A stretch of 52,745 nt of DNA, from the IMG/VR virus record IMGVR_UViG_3300043184_000117. One strand, 5' to 3'. Below the pieces are notes generated by a model. That model was not told the origin of the DNA. It worked only from the letters and a program-made list of their open reading frames with translations, and made no database searches. This stretch comes from a virus. Of the stretch, positions 21,672 through 42,995 are shown one piece after another. Each line of letters starts with the position of its first letter. Within the stretch, counting starts at the first letter, position 1. A program made the position numbers and the translations under genes.

Positions 21672-22328
21672 TTACTGGGCAAACACAAAGATATGACCTT
21701 TGTGAGTATGTCTATGTCCGTTTAAACACGAGTTAATTTTACTAGTTTCAAGTCCTAGAGACTCAGCGCAAAGAGATTGACCGGTAAATTTGCCGATAAG
21801 TAGCTGGTTTTTAAGGTCATAGTGGTTTAACTTATTACGTTTTTCAGTTAATTTATACACTAGAAACGATTTAGAATTTTTAGCTAAAGATTGATTCAAT
21901 CTTCTAGTTGTAGTATGTTTTCTATTTAATAAAGATTTTGATGCTTTTATTTTAGACTCTTCTGAAGGAACTCTACCTAGTAATTTTTGCCTACGAAGTT
22001 CTCTAGTTTCTTTAGATTGTTTAACACCAGCTGCAGTTTTCTCTCCTCCAGAGGATATGTTGTATCCAAATTGAGGGTTTTGAAGATTCCACACCTTAAT
22101 CAATTTTCTCTCTATATGGTAACAAGTTTCTGGCTTACAATTCCACACCATATATTTTACTTTACAATTTTTCCATCCATGCTTTTTTATAGCTTTAGTA
22201 ACTAGCATGTCTTTGTGATAACACTTAGAGTGGCTATAAATTCTTTTGCCGGTATTTGTTTCAACACCAACATACTTTTTGCCGTTAGGAAAGGTAATGC
22301 AGTAAACGTTCATTAAATTAACCACCAC
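21672..22328 (-). CDS. Free-standing GIY-YIG homing endonuclease with NUMOD3-like repeats
   Basis: VYCITFPNGKKYVG (GIY-YIG), R..SH, FGYNISSGGE, then repeated K.SKETRELRR / PSEESKIKASKS helices. Alternative start MNVY at 22313. Confidence 0.8.
   Translation of the reverse strand: MVVNLMNVYCITFPNGKKYVGVETNTGKRIYSHSKCYHKDMLVTKAIKKHGWKNCKVKYMVWNCKPETCYHIERKLIKVWNLQNPQFGYNISSGGEKTAAGVKQSKETRELRRQKLLGRVPSEESKIKASKSLLNRKHTTTRRLNQSLAKNSKSFLVYKLTEKRNKLNHYDLKNQLLIGKFTGQSLCAESLGLETSKINSCLNGHRHTHKGHIFVFAQ
21675..21682 (-). promoter_or_regulatory. TTGCCCAG motif (followed by TAATAAT)
   Basis: Minus strand reads TTTGCCCAGTAATAATG; it overlaps the last codons (FAQ*) of the GIY-YIG gene, about 67 nt upstream of the fibre ATG. 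Confidence 0.4.
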
Positions 22329-22777
22329 GAAACGCCATTAGAAGCTAGTGTCAATGATTGACCAGAAATGTCAAAAACGTAATTAGCCGCTACACCTTCA
22401 ATCTGCTCACTTCCTGCACGTACAATAGTGATATTATTAGTGTTAGCATTATTAGATATATCTTTAATATAAATAATTAATCCAGAAGATGCTGCTGGTA
22501 ATGTTAGAGATCTTTCTGCACTAGTATCAACTAAATGAATGGCATAAGCAGTAAGTGTTACGTTTGAGCTGACACTTATAACTTGTCTAGCTAATGGTTG
22601 TCTTGCACCAAGTGCTGTGTTAATCCCATTAAGATGTGCAGATACTTTGTCAGTTCCTTCGGATGCAACTTGAGTGGGTGTATAGTTTGTAGCTGTATTT
22701 GTGGCTGGAATTGGTTGAGCATTAACATCGGTAGACCCAGTTCCAAATCTAATAAATTTTCTAGCTATACGCGACAT
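22313..22777 (-). CDS. Small fibre-associated protein, C-terminal module paralogous to 33611-34267
   Basis: RSLTLPAASSGLIIYIKDISNNANTNNITIVRAG resembles RTITLPLASSVTQGRIYIVKDTLGTANLNNITIATQG. Confidence 0.55.
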   Translation of the reverse strand: MSRIARKFIRFGTGSTDVNAQPIPATNTATNYTPTQVASEGTDKVSAHLNGINTALGARQPLARQVISVSSNVTLTAYAIHLVDTSAERSLTLPAASSGLIIYIKDISNNANTNNITIVRAGSEQIEGVAANYVFDISGQSLTLASNGVSWWLI

Positions 22778-22815
22778 AAATTTCTCCTTTTATCATCAGT
22801 TTTCACTGGTAAGAG

Positions 22816-22833
22816 AAGGCGCCGAAGCGCCTT
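22816..22833 (-). terminator. Stable UUCG-tetraloop hairpin after the 512-aa fibre gene
   Basis: Minus strand AAGGCGC-TTCG-GCGCCTT followed by CTCTT. Confidence 0.5.
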
Positions 22834-22835
22834 AA

Positions 22836-24374
22836 TTATACAAGATACATGTATGATATAATAATAACGTCTCCACTGACAAGCTCTGCAGCGCCGCCAG
22901 TTGCAAGGTCGCCCGCAAATGTAATTCTTGTAACACCACCAGCTCCTCCTGTTAATGATACAGTGTAATCCGTACCTCTAATTTGCTTAGGTCCTTGAGC
23001 AGGACAAAGTGCGATCGATGCAGCAGAATGTGCAGCAAACGCCAAATCTACATATTGATTAGTAATATCGCCAGACACTAATGTAATTACTTGCTCATTA
23101 AGCTTTAAAGATTCTAAATTATTAGATCCATTGATCCTAACTGTAGCGGCATCAACCCTAACACTCAATTGATCAGAAGAAATTTGCAACGCACTAGATG
23201 TGGCTAAATTAACTTCTAAACTACCATCAACGTTTTGTGCAAGCCCTAGACCTGCAACATCGGCAGCAATTTTAGTTCTATCAACAGCGTCATCGGCAAT
23301 TTTTACAGTAGTAATGGCTGAGTTTGCAATAGTAATAGCTCCGGAAGCAACAAGAGTAGCGTCCCCACTCAATGGTTGAGCAACAGCAAGGTTACCAGCT
23401 GATCCAACAAAAATTTGCCCACTTGGAAGTGTAGTAGTCAGTTTTGCATCTAATTGAGTCTGAATATCCGAAGTTACGCCACCAAGATATTGAAACTCAG
23501 TGTTAGTTACTGAACCGTCGGCAATTTTTATAGCATCAACGCCAGTTGCAATTTTAGCATTAGAAATCCCGGCATCTTTTACACGAATACCAGATGCGCT
23601 AGTTTCTACGGTTATATCATCAAGTTTTGCAGCAAGTTGATTAGATCCATCAATTTCAAGTGAGGGATTAGATGCTTCTAATTTAATGCGCAGTTGTCCA
23701 GCATCGTTTCCTGGGTTAGTAGATTCAAGTCCAGATACTGATGCAAGATCAACAGATATAATGTTTACACCTGTAACAGTAATCATATCTCCGCCGGTAA
23801 CTGTACCGGTTGAATTAAAAAATACAAACGTAAGAGGATCAGTACCTAGTGTAGTAACAACTGCAGATTGCACGTATCCTTTAGCGGCGTTTTCGGTTCC
23901 TAATTGAACAAATGTGTAGGCTCCATTTATTTCGTCAACCGGAGTTAATGAATCCATATCAGTTGCGCGTGTCCAAGAACCAACGGCAGCAATATAAATA
24001 CCGTTATTTTGCGCAAGCGTTTGATCCTTTACTAAAATCCTATCCCCAGTAGCGGTTGCAACACCATCAATTGTTTGGTTTCCACTCAAAGTAATGTTTG
24101 CAGTTGTAGCCAATCTTACCGCTGCTTTAGGTTTTAATCCTTCAAGGTTTGCATCAACGTAAGATTTTCTAACAAGGTCATTTGCATTAACCGGATCTGA
24201 GGTTACTTGAGGTACAGATGAAAATTGAATGGTATCAGATGAATCTACTAGAAGTATATTTACGTCTGCAGTGTTAGCATTATTCCGTGCTTTCAATGCA
24301 GCGTTGTTTTCTAATCTAATTTTTGTTGCGCCTACTGCATTGTTAGCAATAAACTTTTTTTGAATTTGTGACAT
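22836..24374 (-). CDS. Tail fibre protein
   Basis: AAVRLATTANITLSGNQTIDGVATATGDRILVKDQT..NNGIYIA..GSWTRATD, a common phage-fibre domain pattern; repetitive downstream region. Confidence 0.7.
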   Translation of the reverse strand: MSQIQKKFIANNAVGATKIRLENNAALKARNNANTADVNILLVDSSDTIQFSSVPQVTSDPVNANDLVRKSYVDANLEGLKPKAAVRLATTANITLSGNQTIDGVATATGDRILVKDQTLAQNNGIYIAAVGSWTRATDMDSLTPVDEINGAYTFVQLGTENAAKGYVQSAVVTTLGTDPLTFVFFNSTGTVTGGDMITVTGVNIISVDLASVSGLESTNPGNDAGQLRIKLEASNPSLEIDGSNQLAAKLDDITVETSASGIRVKDAGISNAKIATGVDAIKIADGSVTNTEFQYLGGVTSDIQTQLDAKLTTTLPSGQIFVGSAGNLAVAQPLSGDATLVASGAITIANSAITTVKIADDAVDRTKIAADVAGLGLAQNVDGSLEVNLATSSALQISSDQLSVRVDAATVRINGSNNLESLKLNEQVITLVSGDITNQYVDLAFAAHSAASIALCPAQGPKQIRGTDYTVSLTGGAGGVTRITFAGDLATGGAAELVSGDVIIISYMYLV

Positions 24375-24385
24375 AATCTATTCTC

Positions 24386-24799
24386 CTATATTAAATTTAC
24401 TACTAGTTTATCGCCTATTTCTAAAACACCATCTAACGTTAATCCATTCCAAGACAATAATGTGCCTGAAATTGTAAAGTCTGTTCCGTAAACTTGTTCA
24501 CTTCCACCAATAACTTGTAATCTTGTTAAACTAGGAAAAGATGGTGTTACTACCAAATCGTAATATTTGTTAGCAATATCAGTACTGTTTAATGTTATAA
24601 CTGGGCGAGGATTGTAACCACCAGCTCCAGAAACTATTTCCCAAGTAACGATTCCAGCATTAAACACATAGAGTTCGTGCGTATCTAAAGTTACTGCAAG
24701 TGTGCCATCTACGGCACTAGTGGGCAACGCTGCAAAATTTGCATAAGTCGCAACTCCAGAACCGGATCCCGATACAGCAGGATAACGATATGAACTCAT
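24386..24799 (-). CDS. Virion protein duplicating the C-terminal module of the 512-aa fibre
   Basis: ITLNSTDIANKYYDL...GTDFTISG...IGDKLVV vs ITLVSGDITNQYVDL...GTDYTVSL...SGDVIII. Confidence 0.55.
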   Translation of the reverse strand: MSSYRYPAVSGSGSGVATYANFAALPTSAVDGTLAVTLDTHELYVFNAGIVTWEIVSGAGGYNPRPVITLNSTDIANKYYDLVVTPSFPSLTRLQVIGGSEQVYGTDFTISGTLLSWNGLTLDGVLEIGDKLVVNLI

Positions 24800-25149
24800 A
24801 ACATTTTACCTGTAATATAACCAACAACTACGCCATTTGGCGTTGAGCCTGCTGGAGTAAACGCAACTCTTAGTTTAGAAAAAGGAAGTTGGGATAAATT
24901 AATGATAATATTATCGTTGGTATTAGCTAAGCTGATTGAGGGGGTAACACCAATGTCAACCCACAAGTCGCCATCAACACTACACTCAATCCGAAAAGAT
25001 CCAGTATTAGCGGTTATACCTGTACATTGAAGGGTAATACCTATATTATCTAGATATTGAATAGTTACTGGTTCGGATGAAAAAGATGCCGCAAGGGATA
25101 CACTATCTAATAATTTAAATGGTAACAAGACATTTTTGCGTCCAGACAT
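24796..25149 (-). CDS. Small beta-sandwich-like virion protein, paralog of 17940-18311
   Basis: See 17940-18311. Confidence 0.55.
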   Translation of the reverse strand: MSGRKNVLLPFKLLDSVSLAASFSSEPVTIQYLDNIGITLQCTGITANTGSFRIECSVDGDLWVDIGVTPSISLANTNDNIIINLSQLPFSKLRVAFTPAGSTPNGVVVGYITGKML

Positions 25150-25203
25150 CTGATTCTCCCTCGTAGGTTATGGCATGGTTAGCCAAAGATTTGCACTATT
25201 ATA

Positions 25204-25211
25204 CTGGGCAA
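25204..25211 (-). promoter_or_regulatory. TTGCCCAG motif fused to TATAAT
   Basis: Minus strand reads ATTAATTGCCCAGTATAATAGTG, about 55 nt upstream of ATG 25149. Confidence 0.45.
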
Positions 25212-25224
25212 TTAATAGGTAATA

Positions 25225-27585
25225 TTAGGTCATTCCTGCCAATTTTTCCCCTTGGGTGGGGTACGTTGTAAATTGAGCGTTAGTATTGCCCTGGGCAGGT
25301 TGCTGCGCATTTGGATCCTCAACTGGCTGCTGATTTACTAATATGGCAAGTGTTTGTTGCCTCAAACTTGGATCCAAATCTATACCTAGAATTAGGGATA
25401 ATTTAAGGCGATTGTTGTATGGGATTGAGGTTGGATTTTTATCCACGGCGTCATAAACACGCTGTTGAATCTCTACTAGTAAATTAGGATATAACCGTGA
25501 AAGTACTTCAACCTGATCTTTGGTTAGGGTATTATCTTTTAAATCATCGATCGCCGATAATGGGTCTATAATTGTCCTCATTTGGCGCTTAAACTTCAAT
25601 AATTCCATATCTGACGGCTTGTATGGTCTATTTTTTAGTAATGGATTATTTGGCGTAAGAGGTTTTGGCATTATTTCATCAATAAATCTTATTGTATCAG
25701 CTGTTTTAACTTGAGCCGCTTGAGCGATTTGAGGGGCACCCATTTCGCCAATATCCGTTAAGGCTTGAGTTATTTCTGATTGGTCAGGGTGCAGCACCGC
25801 GTTTGAAATTTTGTTGCTAAAGTGCTCATAATTGTCATCTTGTTTATCACCGGTTAATTGAGATAAAGATGTGATTGCGCGACCTTTTGTGCGCTGACCG
25901 TAGTCTTTTAACTTTGTACCAATGTCGTCTAATTTTTTAGCGGTCTTTTTCATTTGGTCACTAGTAAATAATAGACCACCAACATTATACATTCCCTGTA
26001 CATATTGCTTAGCTTTGTTTGCTGCTACGCCCGTTGCGGCACCTAAAAGACCTCCAGAGGCAGCACCTGCGCCTCCTAAAATTATATCCGTTAAGCCTAG
26101 CCCTGGACGATTTACCTCACGCGCAGCGCTTCTTGATATTAATGGCTCAATACTTGTTGCCATTCTATAAGTATCATTATGTTGTTTAAACGATTGGGCT
26201 ACATCTTTTAAATCAGGAAAAACTTTAGAAATATTTGGTGCTAAACTATCTTTAAAATAATCTTGAATATCGCGAACAATTTCTTTTCTGGCATCAGTAG
26301 CTAAATCAGAAATATTATTTAGTTTATCGTAATTTATTAAATTTTTAGTGCTTTTTTGAAATTCTCTAAGAGCATTTAAATTAATAGGCTTTGAATCACC
26401 TTGAAAATTAATTTTAACAAAATTACCAATATTACCTAGTTCTTGCTCAACTTTTTGTAATTGAGCGTTGTATCTAATATCATCTTTGTATGGATTAATG
26501 TATTTGTCTTGTATTTTTGTAGCTAATTGAGAATAATCATACATTCCATCTTTTAGCTCTGCAACCGCGGCATCATCTAAAGTTGGCACCATGTTAGTTA
26601 TTCTTTCATCAAGTTGCTTAATTACTCCACCCAGGGCTTTTCCAGATGTAATTTCTACAGCCTTTACTGCATCTGACAATCTCTCAACATCTGTCAAAAC
26701 ACCGGCATCTCCTTTACTAATGTCTCGCAAAAATTGTGGCATTTTTTCAACTACATCAGGAGCGCGTTGTTCTAGTTTTGCTCTTTGAGCAGGCGTAGCA
26801 CCGATTGCGCGAAAAGCACTATCGGTTTCATAATTTTTTAATGTGTCGCCTAATTCTCTTTTTTCTTTTCCTAGTTTAAGAATAGGTTTTAGTGCAGCAC
26901 TGCCGGCACCAAATATTCCACCTAAAGCACCACCAGCAAGCATTGTTTCTGCGGCAGCTTCTGGATCTCCTAAAGCTGCTTCAGTTATTGCAGTCGGAGC
27001 CGCATAAGTTAATCCCTCCGATATTTCTCTAGCTACAGGTGCAATTTTAGATGATACTGCTTTGGCGGCAACATTTTCAGCAGCTTTACCAACTGCGGTT
27101 GCACCGCGCATCAATTGAGAAGCTGGGTTAACTATTTTACCTGCAGTAGTTACGGGATTTAGCAATCCAACACCAAAGCCAGCAAGTCCTCCTGCTGTAT
27201 TTGCTAAATTATGTTCTTTTTTAAGAGCTTCACGTTTAGCAACTTCAAGAGGGTCAGAAGTTTTGTTTAAAATTAACTCTGGTAACCCAAGTGCAGCTTC
27301 ATCAACAAATTGACCCAATGCGACTTTTGCAGCGCCGCCTATGCCTTTATTTTCTTTTACATATTCACGAATTTCGGTTTGATCTGGAGTTTCCAGTTTA
27401 TATCCACCACTTAGTGCTTGGGGGAGTTCAGAGGCATCAAGGTTGTAAGATTCACCTTGTTCGTCGACAACATTAACCTTAGTGCCTTTTTTGTATGCGT
27501 GGGTACCGGCGGCTAACGCTTTTGGTATATTATCCGTGGTTATGTCTTCTGGTAAACCAGTTTGAACATTATATAATTTTTGCAT
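25225..27585 (-). CDS. Internal virion/ejection protein candidate (786 aa)
   Basis: Position equivalent to T7 gp15/16; A/G-rich segments (GGAGAASGGLLGAATG); no enzymatic motif seen. Confidence 0.5.
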   Translation of the reverse strand: MQKLYNVQTGLPEDITTDNIPKALAAGTHAYKKGTKVNVVDEQGESYNLDASELPQALSGGYKLETPDQTEIREYVKENKGIGGAAKVALGQFVDEAALGLPELILNKTSDPLEVAKREALKKEHNLANTAGGLAGFGVGLLNPVTTAGKIVNPASQLMRGATAVGKAAENVAAKAVSSKIAPVAREISEGLTYAAPTAITEAALGDPEAAAETMLAGGALGGIFGAGSAALKPILKLGKEKRELGDTLKNYETDSAFRAIGATPAQRAKLEQRAPDVVEKMPQFLRDISKGDAGVLTDVERLSDAVKAVEITSGKALGGVIKQLDERITNMVPTLDDAAVAELKDGMYDYSQLATKIQDKYINPYKDDIRYNAQLQKVEQELGNIGNFVKINFQGDSKPINLNALREFQKSTKNLINYDKLNNISDLATDARKEIVRDIQDYFKDSLAPNISKVFPDLKDVAQSFKQHNDTYRMATSIEPLISRSAAREVNRPGLGLTDIILGGAGAASGGLLGAATGVAANKAKQYVQGMYNVGGLLFTSDQMKKTAKKLDDIGTKLKDYGQRTKGRAITSLSQLTGDKQDDNYEHFSNKISNAVLHPDQSEITQALTDIGEMGAPQIAQAAQVKTADTIRFIDEIMPKPLTPNNPLLKNRPYKPSDMELLKFKRQMRTIIDPLSAIDDLKDNTLTKDQVEVLSRLYPNLLVEIQQRVYDAVDKNPTSIPYNNRLKLSLILGIDLDPSLRQQTLAILVNQQPVEDPNAQQPAQGNTNAQFTTYPTQGEKLAGMT

Positions 27586-27599
27586 AGTGACCTTTAAAA

Positions 27600-29159
27600 T
27601 TAGTTCTTCTGCAATGATTTTAATTGAGGTTCGTCATTTAGTAAACCAAATCCACGTAATTTTTGAGCCTCGCCTGCCATTTTTATATCAATAAATTCTT
27701 TTAATTTTTGTTCTTTTAGTCTTCGCATACTAGCTGTATCTGTAGGAGCCAATAAAAATGGTTTTACATTTCTTTCAATTTCAGCTTCTTGGATTGTACC
27801 TTGACCAGCCATTGTTTGTCTAATAGCTGACTCTAGTTTAGCATTTTCTGTAGCAAGAATAGTTTTAGCGTCACTTAAAGGAACTACTGCACTAAGTCCA
27901 ATATCTCTAGTTGATCCAAACGTATTTTTTATTGCGTTTAGTGTAGCTTTTCCAGAATCGTAAGTTTCTTTAGCTTTTAATAATGTAGCTTGTGTTCCGG
28001 CAGGAAATTTCATGATTTTTTGAGTAATAGGATCCTGACCTTGACCAATTTGAGCGGCTTCAGCGGCTTTTTGTACCGACTCTTGCGCTTTAATTCCTAA
28101 TTCTTGCGCTTTCATTTGTAATTCTTGCTGTGCTTGTACATTACGAGATTGTTGCGCCATTTCGGTTAATTTAAGTTGCGCCATTTGATACATTTCAGCA
28201 CGTTTTGCATTACGAGCCGCTTCTTTATTTCCATTGTATTTATTGAGGAGATCTTGGTATCTAGAAACTTTATCTTTTGCCGCAGCTTGCTTGCTGGCTA
28301 AAAGCCCCTCTTGCGCCTTTATATCTCTCTCAATTATATTATCAATAAATTTTGTTGGGTTTGCTTGTCCAGAGTAACCGCCCGCAGCTGCGCCAGCAAG
28401 CATAAGCAATTTTCCAAAAAAACCCATATCACTAAAAACTTTATTTGGATTAACTTTACCAGCGGCAATTTCGTCTAAGCCCTCTTGAGCTTTGCCTAAA
28501 TCACTTTCTAATTGCTGCTGCTTCAAATCTTTTTCAATAGCATTATCTGCCTCAAGCTTAGCAAGTTGGGTTTCATAACCTTTAACTACACTCATTTCAT
28601 CATTAGCAGCTTGAGCGCCAATAGCAGCTGGAGCATCCAATACTGGATTCATTTGAGGTGCAATCGGCGCAGGCGGTTGAGTTGCAGGAGCTTTAGCACC
28701 ACTAAGTTCTAATTCTTCTGGACTAACTGGAGTTTGTTGTATTGGTTGAGAAGGGAGACCCACGGCTGCCATGTCTAGATTGAGTTGTTCTTCTTCTAGT
28801 TTTTTAGCTTCTTCCGCGCGTTGGTTTGCAGATTTTAAGGCGTTAATTTCAGTAGCCGCTTCAACAACCTTTCTATCCGTAACCGGACTGCGAGATACAC
28901 CCGACGGACCGACATCGGCTAACTTAGCAGCCGCTCTACCTGTGGATTGCTCAAGCAGTTGTTGTTTAGGATCAATAGCTTGACTAGTCATAGGCTGCAT
29001 TTCTGCAACTCCACTAATTTGGTCTAGTGTGCTATCTAAGCCTGTTTGTTGCGCAACATCGCTGAATGGAGTTTTATTAGATGCCCGGATTTTGTCAAAA
29101 GTTTCTTGACTAATTATTCCAGAGTCTAGCAATGTTTTTGCTTGTTGCGGTGTAAACAT
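27600..29159 (-). CDS. Internal virion/ejection protein candidate (519 aa), Q/A/K-rich coiled coil
   Basis: Composition and position. Confidence 0.5.
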   Translation of the reverse strand: MFTPQQAKTLLDSGIISQETFDKIRASNKTPFSDVAQQTGLDSTLDQISGVAEMQPMTSQAIDPKQQLLEQSTGRAAAKLADVGPSGVSRSPVTDRKVVEAATEINALKSANQRAEEAKKLEEEQLNLDMAAVGLPSQPIQQTPVSPEELELSGAKAPATQPPAPIAPQMNPVLDAPAAIGAQAANDEMSVVKGYETQLAKLEADNAIEKDLKQQQLESDLGKAQEGLDEIAAGKVNPNKVFSDMGFFGKLLMLAGAAAGGYSGQANPTKFIDNIIERDIKAQEGLLASKQAAAKDKVSRYQDLLNKYNGNKEAARNAKRAEMYQMAQLKLTEMAQQSRNVQAQQELQMKAQELGIKAQESVQKAAEAAQIGQGQDPITQKIMKFPAGTQATLLKAKETYDSGKATLNAIKNTFGSTRDIGLSAVVPLSDAKTILATENAKLESAIRQTMAGQGTIQEAEIERNVKPFLLAPTDTASMRRLKEQKLKEFIDIKMAGEAQKLRGFGLLNDEPQLKSLQKN

Positions 29160-29188
29160 AATTTAACCTTATGGTTAAGATTTAATAA

Positions 29189-29377
29189 TTAAAGACCGAT
29201 ATTTTTTTTATAACTTTCGTCGTAAAATCTAGGATTTTTTTCTTTTTGTTTTTCAAACCATTCTTTTTTCTTTTTTGTATACTCATCATCTTCTGGTTTG
29301 GCTAATTTAGAAAAAACTCCTTTTTTAGCATCAGGGGCTCCATATTTTGATTTTAATGCATCTATTAATCCAGCCAT
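29189..29377 (-). CDS. Hypothetical lysine-rich protein (62 aa)
   Basis: ORF track. Confidence 0.5.
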   Translation of the reverse strand: MAGLIDALKSKYGAPDAKKGVFSKLAKPEDDEYTKKKKEWFEKQKEKNPRFYDESYKKNIGL

Positions 29378-29379
29378 AA

Positions 29380-30297: not shown

Positions 30298-30299
30298 AA

Positions 30300-30638: not shown

Positions 30639-30640
30639 AG

Positions 30641-33592: not shown

Positions 33593-33610
33593 ACTAGCCT
33601 CTAGTTTAAA

Positions 33611-34267: not shown

Positions 34268-34276
34268 AAGTATTCC

Positions 34277-34600
34277 TTAAAACACCCACAAATCAACAGT
34301 TACATTGATATTGGAGTTTAAAATTAACGTTAAATTAGAACTTCTATTAGTATCTTGCTCATCATATATCTGGGCGGCGCCTCTTAATCGAGTTGTAAAC
34401 CAGCCTATCAATTCTCTGCCAAGTTTATGCTCAATAATGTTAGTTCCGTTAACGAGTTTTATATTTGTTAATAATTGCCCTTGAATAATCTGTATAGATG
34501 GTAAGGCATTGATTGCAGTGTCTACATTATCTTGAACTCTAGAGATAAGTTGATCTGGAATTTTTAATTTTTTAAATTTTCTAAATTGCACTAAAACCAC
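34277..34600 (-). CDS. Hypothetical virion protein (107 aa)
   Basis: ORF track. Confidence 0.5.
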   Translation of the reverse strand: MVLVQFRKFKKLKIPDQLISRVQDNVDTAINALPSIQIIQGQLLTNIKLVNGTNIIEHKLGRELIGWFTTRLRGAAQIYDEQDTNRSSNLTLILNSNINVTVDLWVF

Positions 34601-35268
34601 CGCCTGTTATTAAAACGATCTATGCGGTTAAGGTCGGTGATAGACTTAGGCATTCCTGCATCTCTTCGAGCTGCCATATTGATTATACGCTGGCGAAGCA
34701 TTTCTTTTTCTTGAACCATTGCAGACGTATCGGATTCTTCTTTTTGCAAGCATTTTCTAGCCGCATCTACAACAATATATTCTTCCCAACCGTTTATGCC
34801 ATCAAGGGTGTCAGTATCAAGAAGTAAAGTTGTGCATTTTGGAATGTACCAAAGGCGGTAATCTCCGGCAGCATTGTCTTCAGGGGTAATATAAATTTTA
34901 TTACCCACAATTCTATACTGAGTATACCATTGAGAGGCGTTTAAAATTCCTACACCTTGACGATTAATATTTCTTTCGGCAAATTGAAATGGCTGCAACG
35001 TATAGAAATTATTATTATCAAGTTTACCATCTACGCCGCGAAGTTTGTAAAAATCGGTTGGTAGATCAATTGTGCTTCCAGTAGTGATTGTTACTGTTAC
35101 TGGCGGCAACGTGTAGTAATCTTCAAATGATGCAACTAATAAATCATATAATTCTTGATAGCTAGAATTGATATATTGATTGAGTTCGTCCTCCTCAACA
35201 AACAAGGAGTTCTTCATATCGGCACGAGCGCGCACACGCTCACGCATTGTTGCTAAGGTCGTACTCAT
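34591..35268 (-). CDS. Head-tail adaptor / tail tubular A-position protein (225 aa)
   Basis: Position relative to the capsid and nozzle genes only. Confidence 0.35.
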   Translation of the reverse strand: MSTTLATMRERVRARADMKNSLFVEEDELNQYINSSYQELYDLLVASFEDYYTLPPVTVTITTGSTIDLPTDFYKLRGVDGKLDNNNFYTLQPFQFAERNINRQGVGILNASQWYTQYRIVGNKIYITPEDNAAGDYRLWYIPKCTTLLLDTDTLDGINGWEEYIVVDAARKCLQKEESDTSAMVQEKEMLRQRIINMAARRDAGMPKSITDLNRIDRFNNRRWF

Positions 35269-35284
35269 ATATAATCCTTAACTT

Positions 35285-35542
35285 TTATTCTTCAGACTCG
35301 TAAGATTCTTCTTTCATTTCGCACATATCGATAAAATCTTTAAGTGCTGAAACCATCATCTTGGCATCTTTTTTTTCTACAGCTTGCATCATCATTGAGG
35401 CGGCATCTTCAAGCGCCATTGACTTATCATCAACCGCTTCTCCTGGTTGTACTTCATCAACGACTTCTTCTTGTGATTTGCCTGGCTTTATTTTTGCTAC
35501 AATTATGCTCGCCATCTTTTTTTTATCTGGTAACATCATCAT
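35285..35542 (-). CDS. Hypothetical acidic Met-rich protein (85 aa)
   Basis: ORF track. Confidence 0.5.
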   Translation of the reverse strand: MMMLPDKKKMASIIVAKIKPGKSQEEVVDEVQPGEAVDDKSMALEDAASMMMQAVEKKDAKMMVSALKDFIDMCEMKEESYESEE

Positions 35543-35561
35543 ATAATATCCTTAATTTTAA

Positions 35562-35592
35562 CCAGAAACTATTATATTACAACAGTTTCTGG
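35562..35592 (-). terminator. 9-bp stem hairpin after the 136-aa gene
   Basis: CCAGAAACT-13 nt-AGTTTCTGG. Confidence 0.45.
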
Positions 35593-35612
35593 ATTAAATA
35601 ATAGTTAGTTAA

Positions 35613-36023
35613 TTACGCATCAAAAGGAGCAACGCCAGATCTACGAACATGTAAGCAAAACGAAAGAACTGAACCAGCAGTTGCATTAGCAGCAGCTCCA
35701 GTAAAATCTAACATTTGGATTACATATTTTTTATCAGCTTTAAAATCAGTCTGAAGATCCGCTGGATTTTCTAAAACTTGCACAGCTGCAATATTGATAG
35801 GGGTGGCGGCTACGAAGCCTGAACTAGAAAATAAAAAGCGATTCCAGCTATCTTCTAGTTCAATTTCATATTGACCAGCAGTAGCTAATTTTGTAATAGA
35901 CTTAATTCCTCCACCTTTTACTGTGCCTACAGCTCCGGCAGCGCCAATAACTAAAGAGCCAAATAACGCACAAACGTCTTGTTCTAGGGTATACTGAAAT
36001 TGTTTAAGGTATCTGTTAGACAT
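35613..36023 (-). CDS. Virion protein next to the capsid gene (decoration/minor capsid candidate), own promoter motif and hairpin
   Basis: ORF track; long GC-rich 5' leader; flanked by the TTGCCCAG motif and a hairpin. Confidence 0.5.
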   Translation of the reverse strand: MSNRYLKQFQYTLEQDVCALFGSLVIGAAGAVGTVKGGGIKSITKLATAGQYEIELEDSWNRFLFSSSGFVAATPINIAAVQVLENPADLQTDFKADKKYVIQMLDFTGAAANATAGSVLSFCLHVRRSGVAPFDA

Positions 36024-36114
36024 AAAAATCCTTTCACCAAATTAGGTGTGGGCGGTTTCTTCGATCACGCGGTGCCCCCAGTACGTAGATCTAGACAATA
36101 GAATGTCATTTATA

Positions 36115-36122
36115 CTGGGCAA
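36115..36122 (-). promoter_or_regulatory. TTGCCCAG motif fused to TATAAAT
   Basis: Minus strand reads CTAGATTGCCCAGTATAAATGAC, about 92 nt upstream of ATG 36023. Confidence 0.45.
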
Positions 36123-36191
36123 TCTAGGTGGTTTAATTAAGTAACTAATTTCAGCAGTATTACTACTGATTTTGGCTGTAATTTAAACTAA

Positions 36192-36539
36192 TTAGTGGTA
36201 ACTGTGTAATTTGAGGTAATCGATCATTTTTTGGAGTGTATCAATGTTCTCCTTGATAGCACCCAGAGTAGTGTTACACACGCGGCACAATAACTGTCTG
36301 ACATGTTTAGTTGAGTGGCAGTGGTCTACCGCTAGTTTCGCGAGTTTTCCATTTATTTTCAATGTTTCGGGTTGGCTGCAAATAGCGCACACATGTCCTT
36401 GTTTTTCGGACATTTCATTATATTCTTCAAGAGATATTTTGAATTCTTTATTGAGACGATAATTACGATGCTTATTCTCGTTATCTATGCGGTGTTGTTT
36501 AAAATACTCCCGCCTATCCCGTGTGTCTTTTTTTTTCAT
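36192..36539 (-). CDS. Free-standing HNH endonuclease of the endonuclease VII (T4 gp49-like) family
   Basis: CAICSQPE...LAVDHCHSTKHVRQLLCRVCNTTLG. Confidence 0.8.
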   Translation of the reverse strand: MKKKDTRDRREYFKQHRIDNENKHRNYRLNKEFKISLEEYNEMSEKQGHVCAICSQPETLKINGKLAKLAVDHCHSTKHVRQLLCRVCNTTLGAIKENIDTLQKMIDYLKLHSYH

Positions 36540-36578
36540 AAACTTATGTTAGCAGATTTGTTAATTTAAGTAAATTAT

Positions 36579-36830
36579 TTACTCGTGTTCTTTTAGATAA
36601 TCTAACATAGATTGTAATATTTCTTTTGATTCTTGAAGTTTACCCAAGGTAGTGTTACATCTATCACATAATAATTTCCTAACTTTACCAGTCTTATGAC
36701 AGTGATCTACCCTAAGATCTTTCTTTAAGGTAGATGCATCACCTAAACAAATATAACATTTATTTTTTTGCGCTTTTTTTGCTTCTTCAAATTGTGCTAA
36801 GGAGATGTCATAATTTCTTTGTAAAGGGCT
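36579..36830 (-). pseudogene. N-terminally truncated second copy of the EndoVII-type HNH gene, with no start codon
   Basis: Own translation: ..LQRNYDISLAQFEEAKKAQKNKCYICLGDASTLKKDLRVDHCHKTGKVRKLLCDRCNTTLGKLQESKEILQSMLDYLKEHE*. An in-frame TAA lies at 36831-36833 and there is no ATG/GTG/TTG before the catalytic core. Confidence 0.7.
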
Positions 36831-36864
36831 TTATGTTTTTCTACGGCAATTTGGATTTTATGGT

Positions 36865-36895
36865 AATAAAAAAGGCTCCCGTAGGAGCCCTTTTT
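36865..36895 (-). terminator. Strong bidirectional rho-independent terminator after the major capsid gene
   Basis: GGCTCC-CGTA-GGAGCC flanked by A6 and T5 runs. Confidence 0.8.
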
Positions 36896-36917
36896 AATTT
36901 GTAACTATTGGATAACA

Positions 36918-38132
36918 TTAAACTTTAATGTTAACGTTATAGCCCGGGGCACGACAACCTAAATTCCCATAAAATCCATACCTTACCTCAACACCATCAG
37001 CGTTAGCCTGTCTTAACATTTGGAGACCGTCAGAGTCAATAACTCTTACAGCTTTTCCAAGTGAATAAAGCTTCCACATATCCATTTGAAGTCCAAAGAT
37101 TCTATCAGAAGGACAGTTTTGATCAGGGATGCACTTGATAGGTCCACGTGGTCCATTGATCATGATACCTCTGAAACCGATTTCAGCCTTAACTTGAAGA
37201 TCAATATATTGAACTTTAGAACCAAGAGCTTTTTCAAGTTCAGCATACTTTTCGTAAGACATAAAAAAGTGGTCAATCTTAGCGCCTTCACGAGCAGCTA
37301 AAGCAGCAGCATCGATCAACGCTTCTTCGATTGGCAATGCACTTCCATCAATTCTTAATCCACCCAAACGAGTATCAACCGAACGGTCAACGCCAAAAAA
37401 TGGAGTAGAAGTAGGAGTTGTAGAAGGAATCCAAGCCTCAAGACCAGAAACTTTTAATCTTACTGGAGTAGCTGAGTTTTCTCTATCACCTTGAACAAAC
37501 AAGAAATCATTAGCAGCTAAGCCAGTGATACCAGCAGCACTATCAACAGTGATTGTTCCAGCAGTACGATCAACAGCAACAATAATTGCAGATCCAGCTC
37601 TAAGTACAGAAGATCCTTGAGTAGCAGAAGCAACTAGAACCATCCCAACTTCAAAGTTAGTTACTGACTCTTCAGATAAAAGAGTGATTGTGTTTGAGCT
37701 AATTGAAGCAACTTGACCGATGTCACCAAAACCTGAACGGAAAAGAGCGGTAGCAAGTGAACGTGTTAAAGTATTGATTGCTCCATCAATTTCTGTTGTA
37801 GCGGCTTCCATAAATGCGTTTGCGTTGCCTTTAGAAGCTTCAAGAGTTTCGTTATCAATAGTAGCGATTGAGTAGTCTTTAACCCTTGTAAGTACGAAGT
37901 CAGCCAATTTAGAATTGGTTACTTGTCCACGAGTTTGAGCGTTAGTAAAACTTGCGCTTCGTCCTTGTGGGTTACCATAAATTAGAGGAATTGGCAAATT
38001 TCGTCCACCAAAATCTTCCATCTTTTTAACTAAAGCCAAAAATGGATTGTCTTTGTAGACCATCATTTCTACTGTATCATTTGTGTAATGCTGCTTAAGT
38101 GCGGCATCAAAACTGACTAAATCTAAACTCAT
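36918..38132 (-). CDS. Major capsid protein
   Basis: 404 aa, directly after the scaffold gene, followed by the strongest terminator in the genome; no motif check possible. Confidence 0.7.
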   Translation of the reverse strand: MSLDLVSFDAALKQHYTNDTVEMMVYKDNPFLALVKKMEDFGGRNLPIPLIYGNPQGRSASFTNAQTRGQVTNSKLADFVLTRVKDYSIATIDNETLEASKGNANAFMEAATTEIDGAINTLTRSLATALFRSGFGDIGQVASISSNTITLLSEESVTNFEVGMVLVASATQGSSVLRAGSAIIVAVDRTAGTITVDSAAGITGLAANDFLFVQGDRENSATPVRLKVSGLEAWIPSTTPTSTPFFGVDRSVDTRLGGLRIDGSALPIEEALIDAAALAAREGAKIDHFFMSYEKYAELEKALGSKVQYIDLQVKAEIGFRGIMINGPRGPIKCIPDQNCPSDRIFGLQMDMWKLYSLGKAVRVIDSDGLQMLRQANADGVEVRYGFYGNLGCRAPGYNVNIKV

Positions 38133-38184
38133 AAAATTTTCCTTTAAAATAAATTAGTTATTATCTCGATATTGAGATAAAAAA

Positions 38185-39087
38185 TTATGTCCACCTTAGC
38201 AAACTTGCCGCGCGTTTTTTACTTTCTTCAATATCAGTCACCGGTGATTTAAACGATGATGACGAAGAGTTCAAACTGTTCGACAGGGTTTTTGGCTTCT
38301 GATCTTTTGCCGCTTCTTTCTTAGGTGCCTCTTGTTCCGGCTGGGGACTTTCCGACTTAGGGGCAAGTTTTGTACTAAACTTTTTTAATTTGGTTACGCC
38401 TTGTACCAAATCTTCTAAGTATTTCTCAACGTGCTCGGCGGCTGCATCTACTTCCATGACCTCACCGTGCAAATTGTAGTACTCTTCGATCAAATCATAA
38501 ACTAGATCAAAATCCTTCTGATAATTAATTAACTCGTATTTATCAGGCTGGCTTGAAACTTTAGAAATAATCTCGTTTTTGAATGTCTCAAGTATCTGGG
38601 CATTTTCTGCCTCAGCTTGTTGTTCTTTAGCTTTTTTTTCTAATTCGCGCTCTTCTTTAAGCTTTTGAAGCTCTTCGCGCATCTCTTTTTCAAGCTTCGT
38701 ATATTTTTCATTTGGATCGCTTTCTTTGGCTACCGGTTCAATACCTAGCTTTAGATTCACAATATCATCAAAACTAATACCTAGTTCTTGAAAAAGTAGG
38801 TCCGGGTTTTTTTTGAATTCGGACTTTTTACTTTCCCAACTTTGGACTTTACTCAATTGCTCTTTGTGCATTTGCTCTTGTTCTTTAAACTTCCGTTCAC
38901 GCTCAAGGATTTGTTTTTCCCTTCTAGATAGTGCGGCAAACTTTGAAGAATAGTTTAGTTCTTCCTTTGGAGGTTCTTTTTTTTCTACTTTTTCTTCTGA
39001 GGGGTTTAACTGAGCTGGCTGCGCTTTAGGGGCTTCATCTTGAACTGGGGTAGCTTCTACAGCGGATGCTGTAACTTCTGAACTCAT
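38185..39087 (-). CDS. Scaffolding protein
   Basis: E/K-rich coiled coil between portal and capsid; start moved to MSSEVTAS (RBS AAAGGAA). Confidence 0.6.
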   Translation of the reverse strand: MSSEVTASAVEATPVQDEAPKAQPAQLNPSEEKVEKKEPPKEELNYSSKFAALSRREKQILERERKFKEQEQMHKEQLSKVQSWESKKSEFKKNPDLLFQELGISFDDIVNLKLGIEPVAKESDPNEKYTKLEKEMREELQKLKEERELEKKAKEQQAEAENAQILETFKNEIISKVSSQPDKYELINYQKDFDLVYDLIEEYYNLHGEVMEVDAAAEHVEKYLEDLVQGVTKLKKFSTKLAPKSESPQPEQEAPKKEAAKDQKPKTLSNSLNSSSSSFKSPVTDIEESKKRAASLLRWT

Positions 39088-39151
39088 AAATATTCCTTTG
39101 TCTTTTAAGCCTCGAAATTGAGGCAAACTAATTATTAGTTAGTTAAGAAGT

Positions 39152-39159
39152 CTGGGCAA
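39152..39159 (-). promoter_or_regulatory. TTGCCCAG motif (with AATAAT 17 nt downstream)
   Basis: Minus strand reads TTTTTGCCCAGACTTCTTAACTAACTAATAAT; about 65 nt upstream of the scaffold ATG. Confidence 0.4.
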
Positions 39160-39238
39160 AAATACATATATAATTCTTTAAAAATTATGCAAAAGTACAT
39201 ATATAATTGCTTAAAAATTATGCAAAAATACATATATA
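39156..39238. repeat. 33-bp tandem repeat, 2.5 copies
   Basis: gcaaaaatacatatataattctttaaaaattat / gcaaaagtacatatataattgcttaaaaattat / gcaaaaatacatatata. Confidence 0.9.
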
Positions 39239-39246
39239 GTTTTTCT

Positions 39247-39306
39247 GTGTAAACAAAAAGAAAGATATGTAAAGTTGTGTAAACAAAAAGAAAGATATGT
39301 AAAGTT
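39247..39306. repeat. 30-bp tandem repeat, 2 exact copies
   Basis: gtgtaaacaaaaagaaagatatgtaaagtt x2. Confidence 0.9.
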
Positions 39307-39373
39307 ACGTAAAGTACTATATAAGTACTGTTTAAATGATACAAATGGTGGATTTTATATCAATCAATTGGTA

Positions 39374-41263
39374 CTAACCTTGTGGTAACAAATCGCTTAC
39401 TGGTGGCGCTTCGGGCACTGCCTGCGGGACTTCAGGCTGCTCCGGTTGAGGGGGTTGGGCGGCTTCGATTAGTGCCGCGGAATCCTCAATAAACCTACGT
39501 AAAAGCTCCAACTTTTCCTCTTCAACGCGACGCGTTTTGGCTTTTAGATAATATGATTGAGCGATTTGAATACACAGTTGAGGGTTCATAAATGGTTCTG
39601 GAGCCGAATATTCATCGGTTTCCATAATGTGCTCAATTACAGCGTGGATGTCGTTCCAAGCCGCAAGTTCCATATCCATGGCGTCTTCAATATCTGGGAA
39701 ATCCAACAGAGCTTTTGCGGTTGTTTGATTAATCATGCCAGATTGAAGTAATTCTTGAACTTTTTGCAAGCGACCCGCTGGTTGAGTTGGTAACAGCGAG
39801 GCGGGGTAGAGTTGTAGTAAAAATTGATCTTGACCGACTTTAATGTCTTTCCACTTTATCTCTTCAATTAAATTAGATCCTGGAACGGTTATTGAGAGTT
39901 GCGGGTTAAGTTCGGCTAGTTCTGATGCTAAATCAATTATTTGTTCACCTAGTTGAATGAAACAATCTTCGTAATGTTGCGACACTAGTGCAAATCTTTC
40001 TGTTTCAATGTCCTGGTATTCTCTCAATGCTACCCCTGAATTTAATCCGGCGGGTTTTTGTGAAGATGCGGATAATTGAGAAATGCCGGTAATGCTAAAG
40101 GCTTTGTTAAACAAAGTTTCAAGATGATTATACAACTCACTAGGCATGGCGTTGGCAGTAACAATATCAGGCTTTGTGCCAGTATACTTAACAATACTGC
40201 CGATTTTATTATTGATGTGATCTTCAACCACGCTTGAACCAGATTCAATTAGGACCCTTGGCACACATGCTAAATTTTGCGCAGACTGGATATCTCGCAA
40301 AAGTTTATTTATTTCAATCTGAATGCCTAACAATTCCTCACCTAGTCCCATGCCGAAAAAACCTAGTAGTTTGCGCGACCATCGCATAATTATAAATGGA
40401 AAATAATCGCGCTCATAGGGCTCACTCAATAATGTGCAATTTTCAATAGTAATACAGTGTCTGCCATCTTTGGCATTTTTACCTGATCTTAAATGCCAGG
40501 ATTCTCTAACTACAGCCATATCTCCACTAAAAGAAGAGGGCAGTGCTCGATCAAATTTTATCTGACCGCTAGCATTGAGGATTTCTTGCGCCTTTTCTGG
40601 AAACATGTCGATTAGGACATCTTTGCTTATGTATTTAATTTGGTGCATTTGGCGAGGTTTGCCATAAACGCCTTCAGCATCGTCAACAATTAACTCATTG
40701 ATAAATACTCGCTCAGTATGTATCCGCTCACCGTCATGGTATACTTTTACAGCACCTGTGCCAAACACTGCGGCATCTTGGAATGCTGCACTCATTTCTT
40801 GGTACGCATTAGAATCCTTAAATACCCCAGCAATAAATTTACTCAATTTTTTACTACGTTGCTGTAAACTCCAGCTGCCACCAGATGTTAAAGCTATTAC
40901 TCTTGGGCGCATTTTAGCAATTTTACTACACGCGGTATCTACACACGCCTTAACTACATTATAACTAATACGATTGCTAATAGCGGTTTGGTTAGTACGA
41001 TCATATAAACCGACTCCAAAACCTAGTATTTCTTGGTTAGCATAAAGTCGGGCGTAGCGTAGATTTTGAATTTGGCGATAAGATTGAGATTCAATAATCC
41101 CGTTGGTTACGGCGGTAATGTGCAAAAATTGATCTTCTTCCGGTTCTTTCCACCACTGAGATTTGATGCTGCCGGCTTGCGTATTTGTGTTTACGTATTC
41201 TTTAATAACTTTAGTTTTGCTATCATATTCGACCGACTTTTCAACGACTTTATTTTTAGCCAC
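39374..41263 (-). CDS. Portal protein
   Basis: 629 aa, first large gene of the morphogenesis block upstream of scaffold and capsid; GTG start with GAGG RBS; proline-rich C-terminus. Confidence 0.65.
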   Translation of the reverse strand: MAKNKVVEKSVEYDSKTKVIKEYVNTNTQAGSIKSQWWKEPEEDQFLHITAVTNGIIESQSYRQIQNLRYARLYANQEILGFGVGLYDRTNQTAISNRISYNVVKACVDTACSKIAKMRPRVIALTSGGSWSLQQRSKKLSKFIAGVFKDSNAYQEMSAAFQDAAVFGTGAVKVYHDGERIHTERVFINELIVDDAEGVYGKPRQMHQIKYISKDVLIDMFPEKAQEILNASGQIKFDRALPSSFSGDMAVVRESWHLRSGKNAKDGRHCITIENCTLLSEPYERDYFPFIIMRWSRKLLGFFGMGLGEELLGIQIEINKLLRDIQSAQNLACVPRVLIESGSSVVEDHINNKIGSIVKYTGTKPDIVTANAMPSELYNHLETLFNKAFSITGISQLSASSQKPAGLNSGVALREYQDIETERFALVSQHYEDCFIQLGEQIIDLASELAELNPQLSITVPGSNLIEEIKWKDIKVGQDQFLLQLYPASLLPTQPAGRLQKVQELLQSGMINQTTAKALLDFPDIEDAMDMELAAWNDIHAVIEHIMETDEYSAPEPFMNPQLCIQIAQSYYLKAKTRRVEEEKLELLRRFIEDSAALIEAAQPPQPEQPEVPQAVPEAPPVSDLLPQG

Positions 41264-41296
41264 ACAGACCTCGTGGATTTAGGGAATATATAACTT

Positions 41297-41304
41297 CTGG
41301 GCAA
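41297..41304 (-). promoter_or_regulatory. TTGCCCAG motif upstream of the portal gene
   Basis: Minus strand reads GGTTATTGCCCAGAAGTTATATATTCC, about 34 nt upstream of the start. Confidence 0.4.
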
Positions 41305-42779: not shown

Positions 42780-42995
42780 TTACTTAGTAGTTAAGTCTTC
42801 CTTAATATCTAACCCATCCAGGTACATTCGCATGCAAAACATGCCCCACTCCAACGAACCTACTAAACTGGCATCATAGTGTAATGCAAACGCCTCAACC
42901 AACACATCTTGGTTGCGCTGTACATAATTGATAAAGGCTGGCGTGGTGCCTAGATCGACCGTGATTTTGCGTAAGCGAGCGGGCGAATGTTTCAT
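42780..42995 (-). CDS. Hypothetical protein (71 aa)
   Basis: ORF track. Confidence 0.55.
   Translation of the reverse strand: MKHSPARLRKITVDLGTTPAFINYVQRNQDVLVEAFALHYDASLVGSLEWGMFCMRMYLDGLDIKEDLTTK

Follow-up and report, generated by a model that had tools for sequence, protein, structure and literature searches.

In phiEco32 and SU10 (Kuravirus), three middle and three late promoters share the sequence tAATGTATAtA, located 6 to 8 nt upstream of the transcription start (PMC4281155, PMC12276001). These promoters are read by the phage sigma factor gp36 with its co-factor gp79, and the early genes depend on sigma70 (PMC4281155, PMC12276001). Among the known systems, this one is the closest, in its logic and in the type of phage, to the element described here, an 8-nt word, TTGCCCAG, that recurs upstream of virion operons in the IMG/VR virus record IMGVR_UViG_3300043184_000117. 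The entire record (52,745 nt, hereinafter "the window") was analyzed, and coordinates without a contig name refer to it. A preliminary description of the same DNA had singled out this word as a candidate late promoter or activator site. Our analysis of the window and of related metagenomic contigs suggests that the motif is probably, if by no means certainly, the sequence-specific core of clade-specific middle/late promoters that are used by the host RNA polymerase redirected by a phage factor.

The window is the complete, circularly permuted genome of an uncultured SU10-like podophage. Its ends (1-127 and 52619-52745) are identical over 127 nt and the gene of a family A DNA polymerase (733 amino acids [aa], minus strand, start at 2037, end at 52454) spans the junction, so that the sequence closes into a circle of about 52.6 kb. 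The base composition is 36% G+C, the minus strand carries most of the genes, and the late genes are tightly packed and co-directional, with few terminators between them. The virion module is of the SU10/P22 type and includes the genes for the portal protein (39374-41263, minus strand, with a GTG start at 41263; P22_portal and SU10_portal families), the capsid protein (36918-38132, minus strand; SU10_MCP family), and the adaptor (34591-35268; SU10_adaptor family).

Occurrence of the motif in the window

A full word count of both strands found five copies of TTGCCCAG on the minus strand and one on the plus strand, a total of 6 against 1.21 expected, and none of 100 dinucleotide shuffles reached this total. 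These are the five minus-strand copies that the preliminary description had listed, and its view that the word is too frequent to be expected by chance proved correct as well. The only additional copy, on the plus strand at 45307-45314, lies in coding DNA, antisense within a 111-aa gene (45038-45373), as had also been reported, and is judged to be a chance occurrence. The exact word alone stands out, since copies with one mismatch (38 observed versus 31.9 expected) are not enriched. When all words in the 13 late spacers were enumerated, TGCCCAG was the most widely common non-AT-rich 7-mer, found in 5 of the spacers, which was reached in none of 300 shuffles; at the length of 8 nt, TTGCCCAG was the word common to most of these spacers, ahead of all others.

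All five minus-strand copies have the orientation of the genes and are located at the 5' border of intergenic spacers, 33 to 91 nt before the next start codon, which agrees with the placement upstream of gene starts given in the preliminary description. The distance from the upstream stop codon is 0 to 69 nt, or 214 nt where repeats have been inserted. The copy at 41297-41304 lies 33 nt before the GTG codon of the portal gene (41263) and 21 nt past the stop codon of a 67-aa gene. The copy at 39152-39159 is found 64 nt before the ATG codon (39087) of the gene in the scaffold position, which is followed by the SU10-type capsid gene (36918-38132). In the remaining three copies, the motif is directly followed by an A+T-rich box. 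This is TATAAAT for the copy at 36115-36122, which follows the capsid terminator and two Endonuclease VII reading frames and precedes by 91 nt the 136-aa gene that opens the adaptor/tail block; TATAAT for the copy at 25204-25211, 13 nt past the stop codon of the 786-aa gene and 54 nt before a 117-aa gene; and TAATAAT for the copy at 21675-21682, which precedes a 764-aa fiber-like gene by 66 nt and doubles as the last codons (TTT GCC CAG TAA) of a GIY-YIG homing endonuclease reading frame (21672-22328). The capsid terminator is an intrinsic one (36867-36889, minus strand; GGCTCC-TACG-GGAGCC with a T-run), located directly after the capsid gene, and equivalent hairpins follow the capsid gene in four of the related contigs (L008, L002, L022, and L039). 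It divides the scaffold/capsid unit from the unit that begins at the 36115 motif.

In the proposed scheme, each copy of the motif would head one late transcription unit, and about five such units are predicted. The first would consist of the portal gene and the second of the scaffold and capsid genes, closed by the terminator; the third would begin with the 136-aa gene and extend over the adaptor, tail, and 786-aa genes; the fourth would run from the 117-aa to the 154-aa gene and the fifth from the fiber gene through lysis. As a late promoter, the conserved word would in this way divide the genome into units of transcription.

Two of the five copies adjoin homing endonuclease genes (GIY-YIG at 21672-22328 and Endonuclease VII at 36192-36539), in which the genome is rich, and the motif might accordingly be viewed as a by-product of mobile DNA or recombination: the target of a homing endonuclease, an insertion scar, or a module boundary. 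We consider this origin most improbable. The motif is kept at L039:15584 and L039:2032 with no endonuclease gene there, three of the copies in the window have no mobile gene in their vicinity, homologous exchange would require more than eight bases, and strict sense orientation would not be expected of such a by-product. The homing endonuclease genes stand free between late operons, all in the minus orientation: a GIY-YIG/NUMOD gene at 21672-22328, which is absent at the corresponding place in L039; an intact Endonuclease VII gene at 36192-36539; and, at about 36580-36830, a second Endonuclease VII frame, which appears decayed by eye and is intact in L031 (199 aa).

Three more sites have been considered as members of the same set. 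At 45485-45492 (minus strand), in the region of small genes, the word TAGCCCAG followed by A, within TAGCCCAGA, is found 111 nt before the 111-aa gene (45038-45373). The orthologous spacer of contig L032 (position 806) carries GTGCCCAGA, upstream of a homologue of that gene product with 42% identity, and, on the strength of this, the site at 45485 is counted as probably a weaker member. At 9466-9473, AAGCCCAG followed by T, within AAGCCCAGT, is found on the plus strand, which is coding in the inverted packaging module. This site is 53 nt short of the end of the RusA-like gene and precedes the gene at 9554-9835 by 80 nt, and contig L035 has GTGCCCAGTAAT at the homologous place (position 513). 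These bases encode a conserved Pro-Ser in both phages, so that coding conservation alone could explain the match, and this site is only a possible member. The third is the variant TTGCCCAA at 2429-2436 (minus strand), which the preliminary description had included in the set. The variant is indeed present at that position; however, it is probably not a member. It lies 6 nt downstream of the -10 hexamer of a canonical TTGACA-17-TAAATT promoter (2471-2443), at about the +1 position of that promoter, and in L040 and L041 the orthologous spacers, in front of the conserved 104-aa gene, are free of both CCCAG and CCCAA.

Conservation of the motif in related phages

No match to the window was found among 50,697 deposited phage genomes, either by megablast with 5.5 kb of its DNA or by tblastn with the portal and capsid proteins (E-value limits of 1e-3 and 1e-5), so that this lineage is known only from metagenomes. 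About a dozen independent metagenomic contigs of relatives were found through homologues of the portal protein, the 786-aa protein, and the polymerase; among viral contigs, a search for homologues of the 786-aa protein found none, and a polA scan returned distant phages only (41 to 45% identity). The portal proteins of the relatives are 67 to 84% identical to that of the window, and the gene order in the late region is the same.

The position of the motif is conserved in these phages: CCCAG followed by A or T is found on the coding strand in the orthologous spacers, and the flanks have diverged. Upstream of the portal gene, CCCAG is present at L034:923, L031:854, L001:2206, L007:1407, L009:1573, and L042:5411 (contig and position). 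Upstream of the scaffold gene, it is present at L034:3386, L031:3189, L035:11947 and 11978, L001:4173, L007:3401, and L042:7357, the spacer of L035 having two to three copies of the motif. The spacer upstream of the 136-aa gene has it at L036:194, L031:6935, and L039:2032; the one upstream of the 117-aa gene, at L036:11124, L037:8075, L022:15090, L039:12305, and on the reverse strand of L041 (approximately 20844); and the one upstream of the fiber gene, at L022:18334, at L039:15584, and in L041, where it reads ATGCCCAG. The subclades differ in the form of the motif, which is KTGCCCAG(W) in the group of the window itself, AAWCCCAGAT in L001 and L042, TRGCCCAGAA in L007 to L009, and YCCCAGTAA in L039.

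Beyond the bases near the motif, the spacers of different subclades are unalignable. In close relatives, identity runs from the motif through the leader, and the upstream side is diverged. Thus, at the 36115 site, identity among the window, L036, and L031 begins at the motif, and at the 39152 site the scaffold leader (TAACTAA ... CCTCAATTTCGAGG) is conserved downstream of the motif and the upstream side is not. The spacers of the replication modules of the relatives lack the motif.

The probabilities of finding CCCAG in the orthologous spacers by chance, multiplied over the contigs, are 4.5e-9, 2.9e-10, and 3.6e-7 for three of the positions; these products treat the lineages as independent and are a rough guide only. 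In a set of 12 loci (165 kb), the density of CCCAGW on the sense strand is 1.75 per kb in spacers and 0.42 per kb in coding DNA, compared to 0.24 per kb for the antisense orientation in spacers, and the binomial P value for the excess of sense-strand copies in spacers is 1e-8. When a weight matrix derived solely from 27 sites in the relatives, with no window sites, was scanned over both strands of the window, the 21675 site ranked first, the 36115 site second, and the 41297 site third, with the sites at 25204 and 39152 at ranks 8 and 16. The idea that the motif is a chance or compositional artifact draws on the shortness of its core, the lack of enrichment at one mismatch, and the fact that CCCAG alone shows no strand bias over the whole window (33 versus 31 copies). 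It is effectively refuted by the comparative data: the enrichment of the exact word is accompanied by restriction to spacers, recovery with a matrix from other genomes, and syntenic conservation.

Anatomy of the element

In an alignment of 34 sites, the information content is limited to positions -3 to +8 around the pentamer, with the preferred bases K, T, and G, then CCCAG, and then W, A, W, T, A, n, and T. The conserved unit is, as far as the alignments indicate, (K)TGCCCAG(W)A, or only CCCAG(A/T) in the clade as a whole, rather than the 8-mer itself, so that the word of the preliminary description is truly enriched as an exact string, yet clade-wide conservation extends to the shorter unit alone. 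There is no conserved position between -20 and -5 in the same 34 sites, which means that there is no -35 element, and no match of at least 9 of 12 in a sigma70 consensus scan overlaps any of the five motif sites of the window. The absence of a -35 partner, noted in the preliminary description, is thereby upheld. Downstream of the pentamer, TA or TAnnnT within four bases is more common than after other copies of CCCAG (P values of 1e-4 and 7e-4), in spacers that are A+T-rich anyway.

The near-consensus boxes TATAAT, TATAAAT, and TAATAAT, which directly follow the motif at three of the window sites, allow a different assignment of roles, in which the motif would be the DNA site of a phage regulator and not an element recognized by the polymerase, and the adjacent A+T box would be the real, sigma70-dependent promoter. 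Such a site could be an operator that silences -10-only host promoters early in infection or the loading site of a Q-like anti-terminator. The shortness of the motif and the variation of its 5' flank among subclades (TTG, GTG, TAG, and AAT), as in co-evolution with a DNA-binding protein, would also suit a regulator. Against this, the motif has neither the dyad symmetry nor the repeats that are typical of operators and is present in one copy per spacer; no helix-turn-helix or other DNA-binding protein was detected; two of the window sites (39152 and 41297) and many of those in relatives have no good -10 hexamer at a fixed distance; and there is no TG of an extended -10 element and no -35 element that would permit unaided use by sigma70. 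Taken together, these features make a regulator site unlikely. The fusion of the motif to a -10-like box, as stated in the preliminary description, holds for the copies at 25204, 36115, and 21675, but there is no single fixed register across the sites.

Several known promoter types were considered for the motif and rejected. If TTGCCC is taken as a -35 hexamer, no consistent -10 hexamer is seen by eye at 16 to 18 bp. A sigma54 reading of the TTGC part fails because the GG dinucleotide 10 bp upstream of GC is absent at all five sites. For a sigma28-like -10 element (GCCGATAA) with TAAA upstream, TAAACC-like words do occur, at variable distances of 6 to 21 bp and with no information in the matrix. 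Promoters of the Bacteroidetes type are ruled out by the strong Shine-Dalgarno sequences of the genes. In the literature, a search for TGCCCAG as a phage promoter word turned up nothing but primer sequences.

The predicted promoters and their reader

Strand-specific placement in intergenic spacers, the lack of a -35 partner, and a syntenic core are the traits expected of a phage-specific late promoter or activator site, and to this extent the reading put forward in the preliminary description is supported. Its other part, an alternative sigma factor or activator, found no counterpart. Scans of nearly all open reading frames (ORFs) of at least 85 aa against Pfam and PHROGs detected no sigma factor, activator, or RNA polymerase, and no scanned ORF matched a transcription regulation entry of PHROGs. 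A phmmer search with phiEco32 gp36 (NC_010324) against all window ORFs of at least 40 aa found no homologue (best E-value of 0.46), and sequence searches of the Protein Data Bank with five candidate proteins yielded no sigma factor, RNA polymerase, or known activator.

A promoter for a phage-encoded RNA polymerase (T7-like, N4-like, or novel), with transcription starting at or next to CCCAG, would be short, phage-specific, strand-specific, and devoid of a -35 element, just as the motif is, and the sites with short leaders (see below) would fit a start right at the motif. The structural module also encodes proteins of 983, 786, 519, and 512 aa that have no family assignment. These unassigned large proteins, however, are encoded among the adaptor, tail, and fiber genes, and the 983- and 786-aa proteins keep their place in the relatives. 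No ORF matches any RNA polymerase family, the PolA family is represented solely by a DNA polymerase that has a 3'-5' exonuclease (proofreading) domain, and the information in the motif spans approximately 8 to 13 bp, compared to about 20 bp in known promoters of single-subunit polymerases. A promoter of this kind is thus very unlikely.

With no -35 element and no phage RNA polymerase detected, we infer that the motif is used by the host polymerase with a phage specificity factor. The promoter core would consist of (K)TGCCCAG and a subsequent A+T-rich, -10-like tract in this genome and of CCCAG(A/T) in the clade as a whole. A phage-encoded specificity factor, made earlier in infection, would direct the host core RNA polymerase to the motif sites; it might be sigma-like but highly divergent, or it might act as an activator or appropriator, reading CCCAG beside the melting region. 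The early and replication genes would be served by ordinary sigma70-type promoters. Indeed, sigma70-like -35/-10 pairs with 10 to 11 matches of 12 are found in the early and replication spacers, at 2471-2443, 8530-8503, 8629-8657, 44627-44600, and 46227-46200, and none of them overlaps a motif site.

Among the possible readers are conserved small proteins whose genes closely precede the late block; these are leads and not findings. One is a 91-aa protein (42500-42775) with a coiled coil and a C4 zinc ribbon, which has a homologue in L032, falls below every family threshold, and returned no match to the Ogr/Delta family. Another is an 85-aa protein (41550-41807) whose gene adjoins the portal gene in subclades A, B, and C. 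It is tempting to suggest, as a tentative proposal, that a new specificity factor, encoded by the phage, recognizes the CCCAG box and redirects the host RNA polymerase to these -35-less promoters, and that its DNA-reading surface has co-evolved with the 5' flank (TTG, GTG, TAG, or AAT) across the subclades. Such a factor would be sigma-like or sigma-appropriating, with no detectable similarity to the known ones.

Several observations weigh against the promoter role, which is predicted from sequence. In addition to the lack of a detectable reader, 8 of the 13 late spacers have no copy of the motif, and a core of 5 to 8 nt yields false positives in coding DNA in the matrix scan. The more distant contigs L024 (capsid 61% identical) and L043 (portal 55% identical) have no motif. 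The -10-like tract is not at one register in 39 sites; a fixed register, CCCAGA-TAnnnT, is seen in subclade B only, in 5 of its 10 sites. Finally, at L042:4836 and L001:1632, the motif is 15 to 17 nt from the ATG codon, with the Shine-Dalgarno sequence in between. A -10 element in the downstream A+T tract would leave the transcripts from these two sites with hardly any leader, and a start immediately after CCCAG would require the -10 element to be formed by the upstream bases, which are TATAAT-like only in subclade B. These short-leader cases appear to fit better with a start at or just after CCCAG, or with a role at the RNA level, than with a downstream -10 element, and, together with the variable register, they leave the sequence compatible with more than one position of the transcription start.

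A role in RNA would make the motif a cleavage or processing site, or a site for an RNA-binding protein, that makes or marks 5' ends in long polycistronic late transcripts. Besides fitting the two short-leader cases, such a role would agree with the strict sense-strand orientation of the motif at the 5' edge of conserved leaders and with the tight packing of co-directional genes with few terminators. However, the RNA folds around the five window copies are no better than those of shuffled sequences (z-scores from -1.3 to +1.5) and have no common structure, and the motif lies anywhere from 15 to 111 nt ahead of the start codon, a variation that would be unusual in a translational operator. RNase E prefers A/U-rich single-stranded sites, to which CCCAG bears no resemblance, no dedicated endoribonuclease was detected, and the 36115 motif follows a strong terminator, so that new initiation is needed there. 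On balance, we regard a role in RNA as improbable. As for termination, only the copy at 41297 can form a 5-bp hairpin, with no T-run, in an intrinsic terminator test of the five sites.

If the motif is indeed a promoter core for a redirected host polymerase, it can serve as bait for finding the protein that takes over host transcription and is invisible to homology searches, as well as a marker for the annotation of related metagenomic contigs. Since the box varies by subclade and its positions are fixed, the lineage offers a natural series for studying the co-evolution of a promoter and its reader. Should the reader protein turn out to be of a new type, it would be one more of the few known ways in which phages redirect bacterial RNA polymerase.

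Other possible regulatory elements of the genome

The spacer between the portal and scaffold genes is enlarged to 247 nt, compared to 63 to 87 nt in L001 and L007, and holds two tandem arrays (39156-39313) made of a 33-nt unit in 2.5 copies and a 30-nt unit in 2.3 copies. All of the 33-nt units include TATATATGTAYTTTTGC, and the TTGCCCAG copy stands at the end of the last unit. The 33-nt repeat has an ATGTAT core that is similar to the phiEco32 gp36 motif, a similarity that may be fortuitous.

The 5' leader of the 136-aa gene (36024-36110, minus strand) is conserved in L036, L031, L039, L008, L022, and L035, with a block that starts with GGGG and ends with CCCAC. It contains a small hairpin just before the Shine-Dalgarno sequence, three pairs of which are kept by compensatory changes among 7 sequences, and may be a structured regulatory leader. 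Two runs of G on the coding (minus) strand, 10 G at 45377-45386 and 6 G at 46298-46303, are located just 5' of the start of the gene at 45038-45373 and of the ATG codon adjoining the gene at 46308-46853, respectively, and look like unusual ribosome-binding sites.

Three perfect matches to the sigma54 consensus (TGGCAC-N5-TTGC) are found within 77 nt (43729-43805), two on the minus strand (43773-43759 and 43743-43729) and one on the plus strand (43791-43805), whereas only about 0.04 exact matches are expected in the whole window, as estimated from base composition. At no more than 1 mismatch, there are 9 matches versus 2.4 expected, a number not reached in any of 100 shuffles. The cluster, in which the element has the form TGGCACC-N4-TTGCA, sits in a 679-nt non-coding stretch (43181-43859), and TGGCACCAnTnTTGCA is the sole conserved block when this region is aligned with its non-coding counterparts in L001 and L032. 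The element is present three times in L032, in both orientations, and once in L035. An enhancer-binding AAA+ protein was not seen among the phage proteins. The copies may represent promoters that depend on the sigma54 of the host, an unusual feature in a phage, or else operators or iteron-like sequences. A strong intrinsic terminator (43015-43043, minus strand), with a 12-bp stem and a T-run, lies inside the called 62-aa ORF at 42992-43180; this ORF may be spurious, and the region from the sigma54-like sites to the terminator may encode a non-coding transcript. In the spacer between the genes for an 85-aa protein and a holin-like protein (GTA_holin_3TM, 18357-18755), a 40-nt A+T-rich unit is tandemly duplicated (18778-18857). 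Rfam and tRNA scans of the window found no Rfam family and no tRNA.

Other genes of the window

The plus-strand block at 8688-15478 encodes a RusA-like protein, GNAT, dUTPase, the large terminase, ThyX, and an M15 peptidase. Its packaging and nucleotide metabolism genes (RusA-like, GNAT, dUTPase, and terminase) are inverted relative to the late genes; in L035 (1-4528), the packaging block is co-directional with the late genes and is located upstream of the portal gene. The large terminase (11110-13533, plus strand) has 807 aa, compared to 461 aa in L035, and its residues from about 237 to 330, ahead of the Terminase_6N and Terminase_6C regions, match LAGLIDADG homing endonuclease domains. The enlargement is probably due to an intein or a fused homing endonuclease.

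A 119-aa protein (2454-2813, minus strand) matches the N-terminal domain of dATP/dGTP diphosphohydrolase (PF18909, E-value of 6e-33) and is taken to be a MazZ-like enzyme, of the kind described in phages whose purines are modified. No gene resembling PurZ was noticed in the window. A 397-aa protein (16215-17408, minus strand), encoded in a region of 42% G+C, above that of its surroundings, has an N-terminal Mtd_N (major tropism determinant) domain. Around this gene, neither a pair of template and variable repeats nor a reverse transcriptase was found, and there is accordingly no evidence of a diversity-generating retroelement. The gene at 47160-47906 (248 aa) includes at least 8 tandem 63-nt repeats (47106-47828, minus strand) that encode a 21-residue repeat of the leucine-rich type (LKSLKGAPKEVGGSFYCHNNNL).

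Comparison with known systems

Canonical sigma70 promoters have a -35 hexamer 16 to 18 bp upstream of the -10 hexamer, which is not seen at the motif sites. In extended -10 promoters (TGnTATAAT), the TG at -15/-14 stands one base upstream of the hexamer. As proposed for the window sites, specific bases just upstream of a -10-like hexamer make up for the missing -35 element; here, however, these bases are CCCAG or GCCCAG instead of TG, the TG of KTG is 5 bases further upstream, and the spacing of the A+T box is variable.

The promoters of T7-like single-subunit RNA polymerases, with about 20 conserved bp, resemble the motif in being recurrent, strand-specific, and phage-specific words before late operons. 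They differ in the length of the conserved stretch, which is approximately 8 to 13 bp here, and in their dependence on an RNA polymerase for which no gene was detected in the window.

T4-type late promoters have TATAAATA at -10 and no -35 element, and are used with the gp55 sigma factor, the gp33 co-activator, and the gp45 clamp. The layout restricted to the -10 region and located before virion genes would be shared with the window, where three of the five sites have TATAAT, TATAAAT, or TAATAAT. In contrast to T4, it is the G+C-rich pentamer that is conserved here and the A+T box that varies, and no homologues of gp55, gp33, or the clamp were found with PHROGs or Pfam.

In T4 middle promoters, a MotA box is combined with a sigma70 -10 element, and sigma is appropriated by AsiA and MotA (PMC12276001). 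The arrangement proposed here is similar in that a phage-specific box would replace the -35 element and a phage protein would redirect the host polymerase. The MotA box is centered at -30, 11 to 13 bp upstream of the -10 element, whereas the box in the window abuts the A+T tract or lies within a few bases of it; no MotA or AsiA homologues were found in the window.

With phiEco32 and SU10, finally, the window shares the SU10-type portal, capsid, and adaptor families and a handful of short-motif promoters, predicted ones in the window, near -10. Their genome is larger (77 kb versus 52.6 kb) and their motif is tAATGTATAtA, whereas the motif copies in the window read (K)TGCCCAG(W)A and ATGTAT is confined, among the window spacers, to the 33-nt repeat between the portal and scaffold genes. 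The difference in the motif and the lack of a detectable gp36 homologue or any sigma factor match in Pfam set the window motif outside the phiEco32/SU10 promoter family. A phage-specific late promoter word with no -35 partner is a well-known kind of element, whereas this particular word, the pattern of its conservation, and the lineage that carries it are new.

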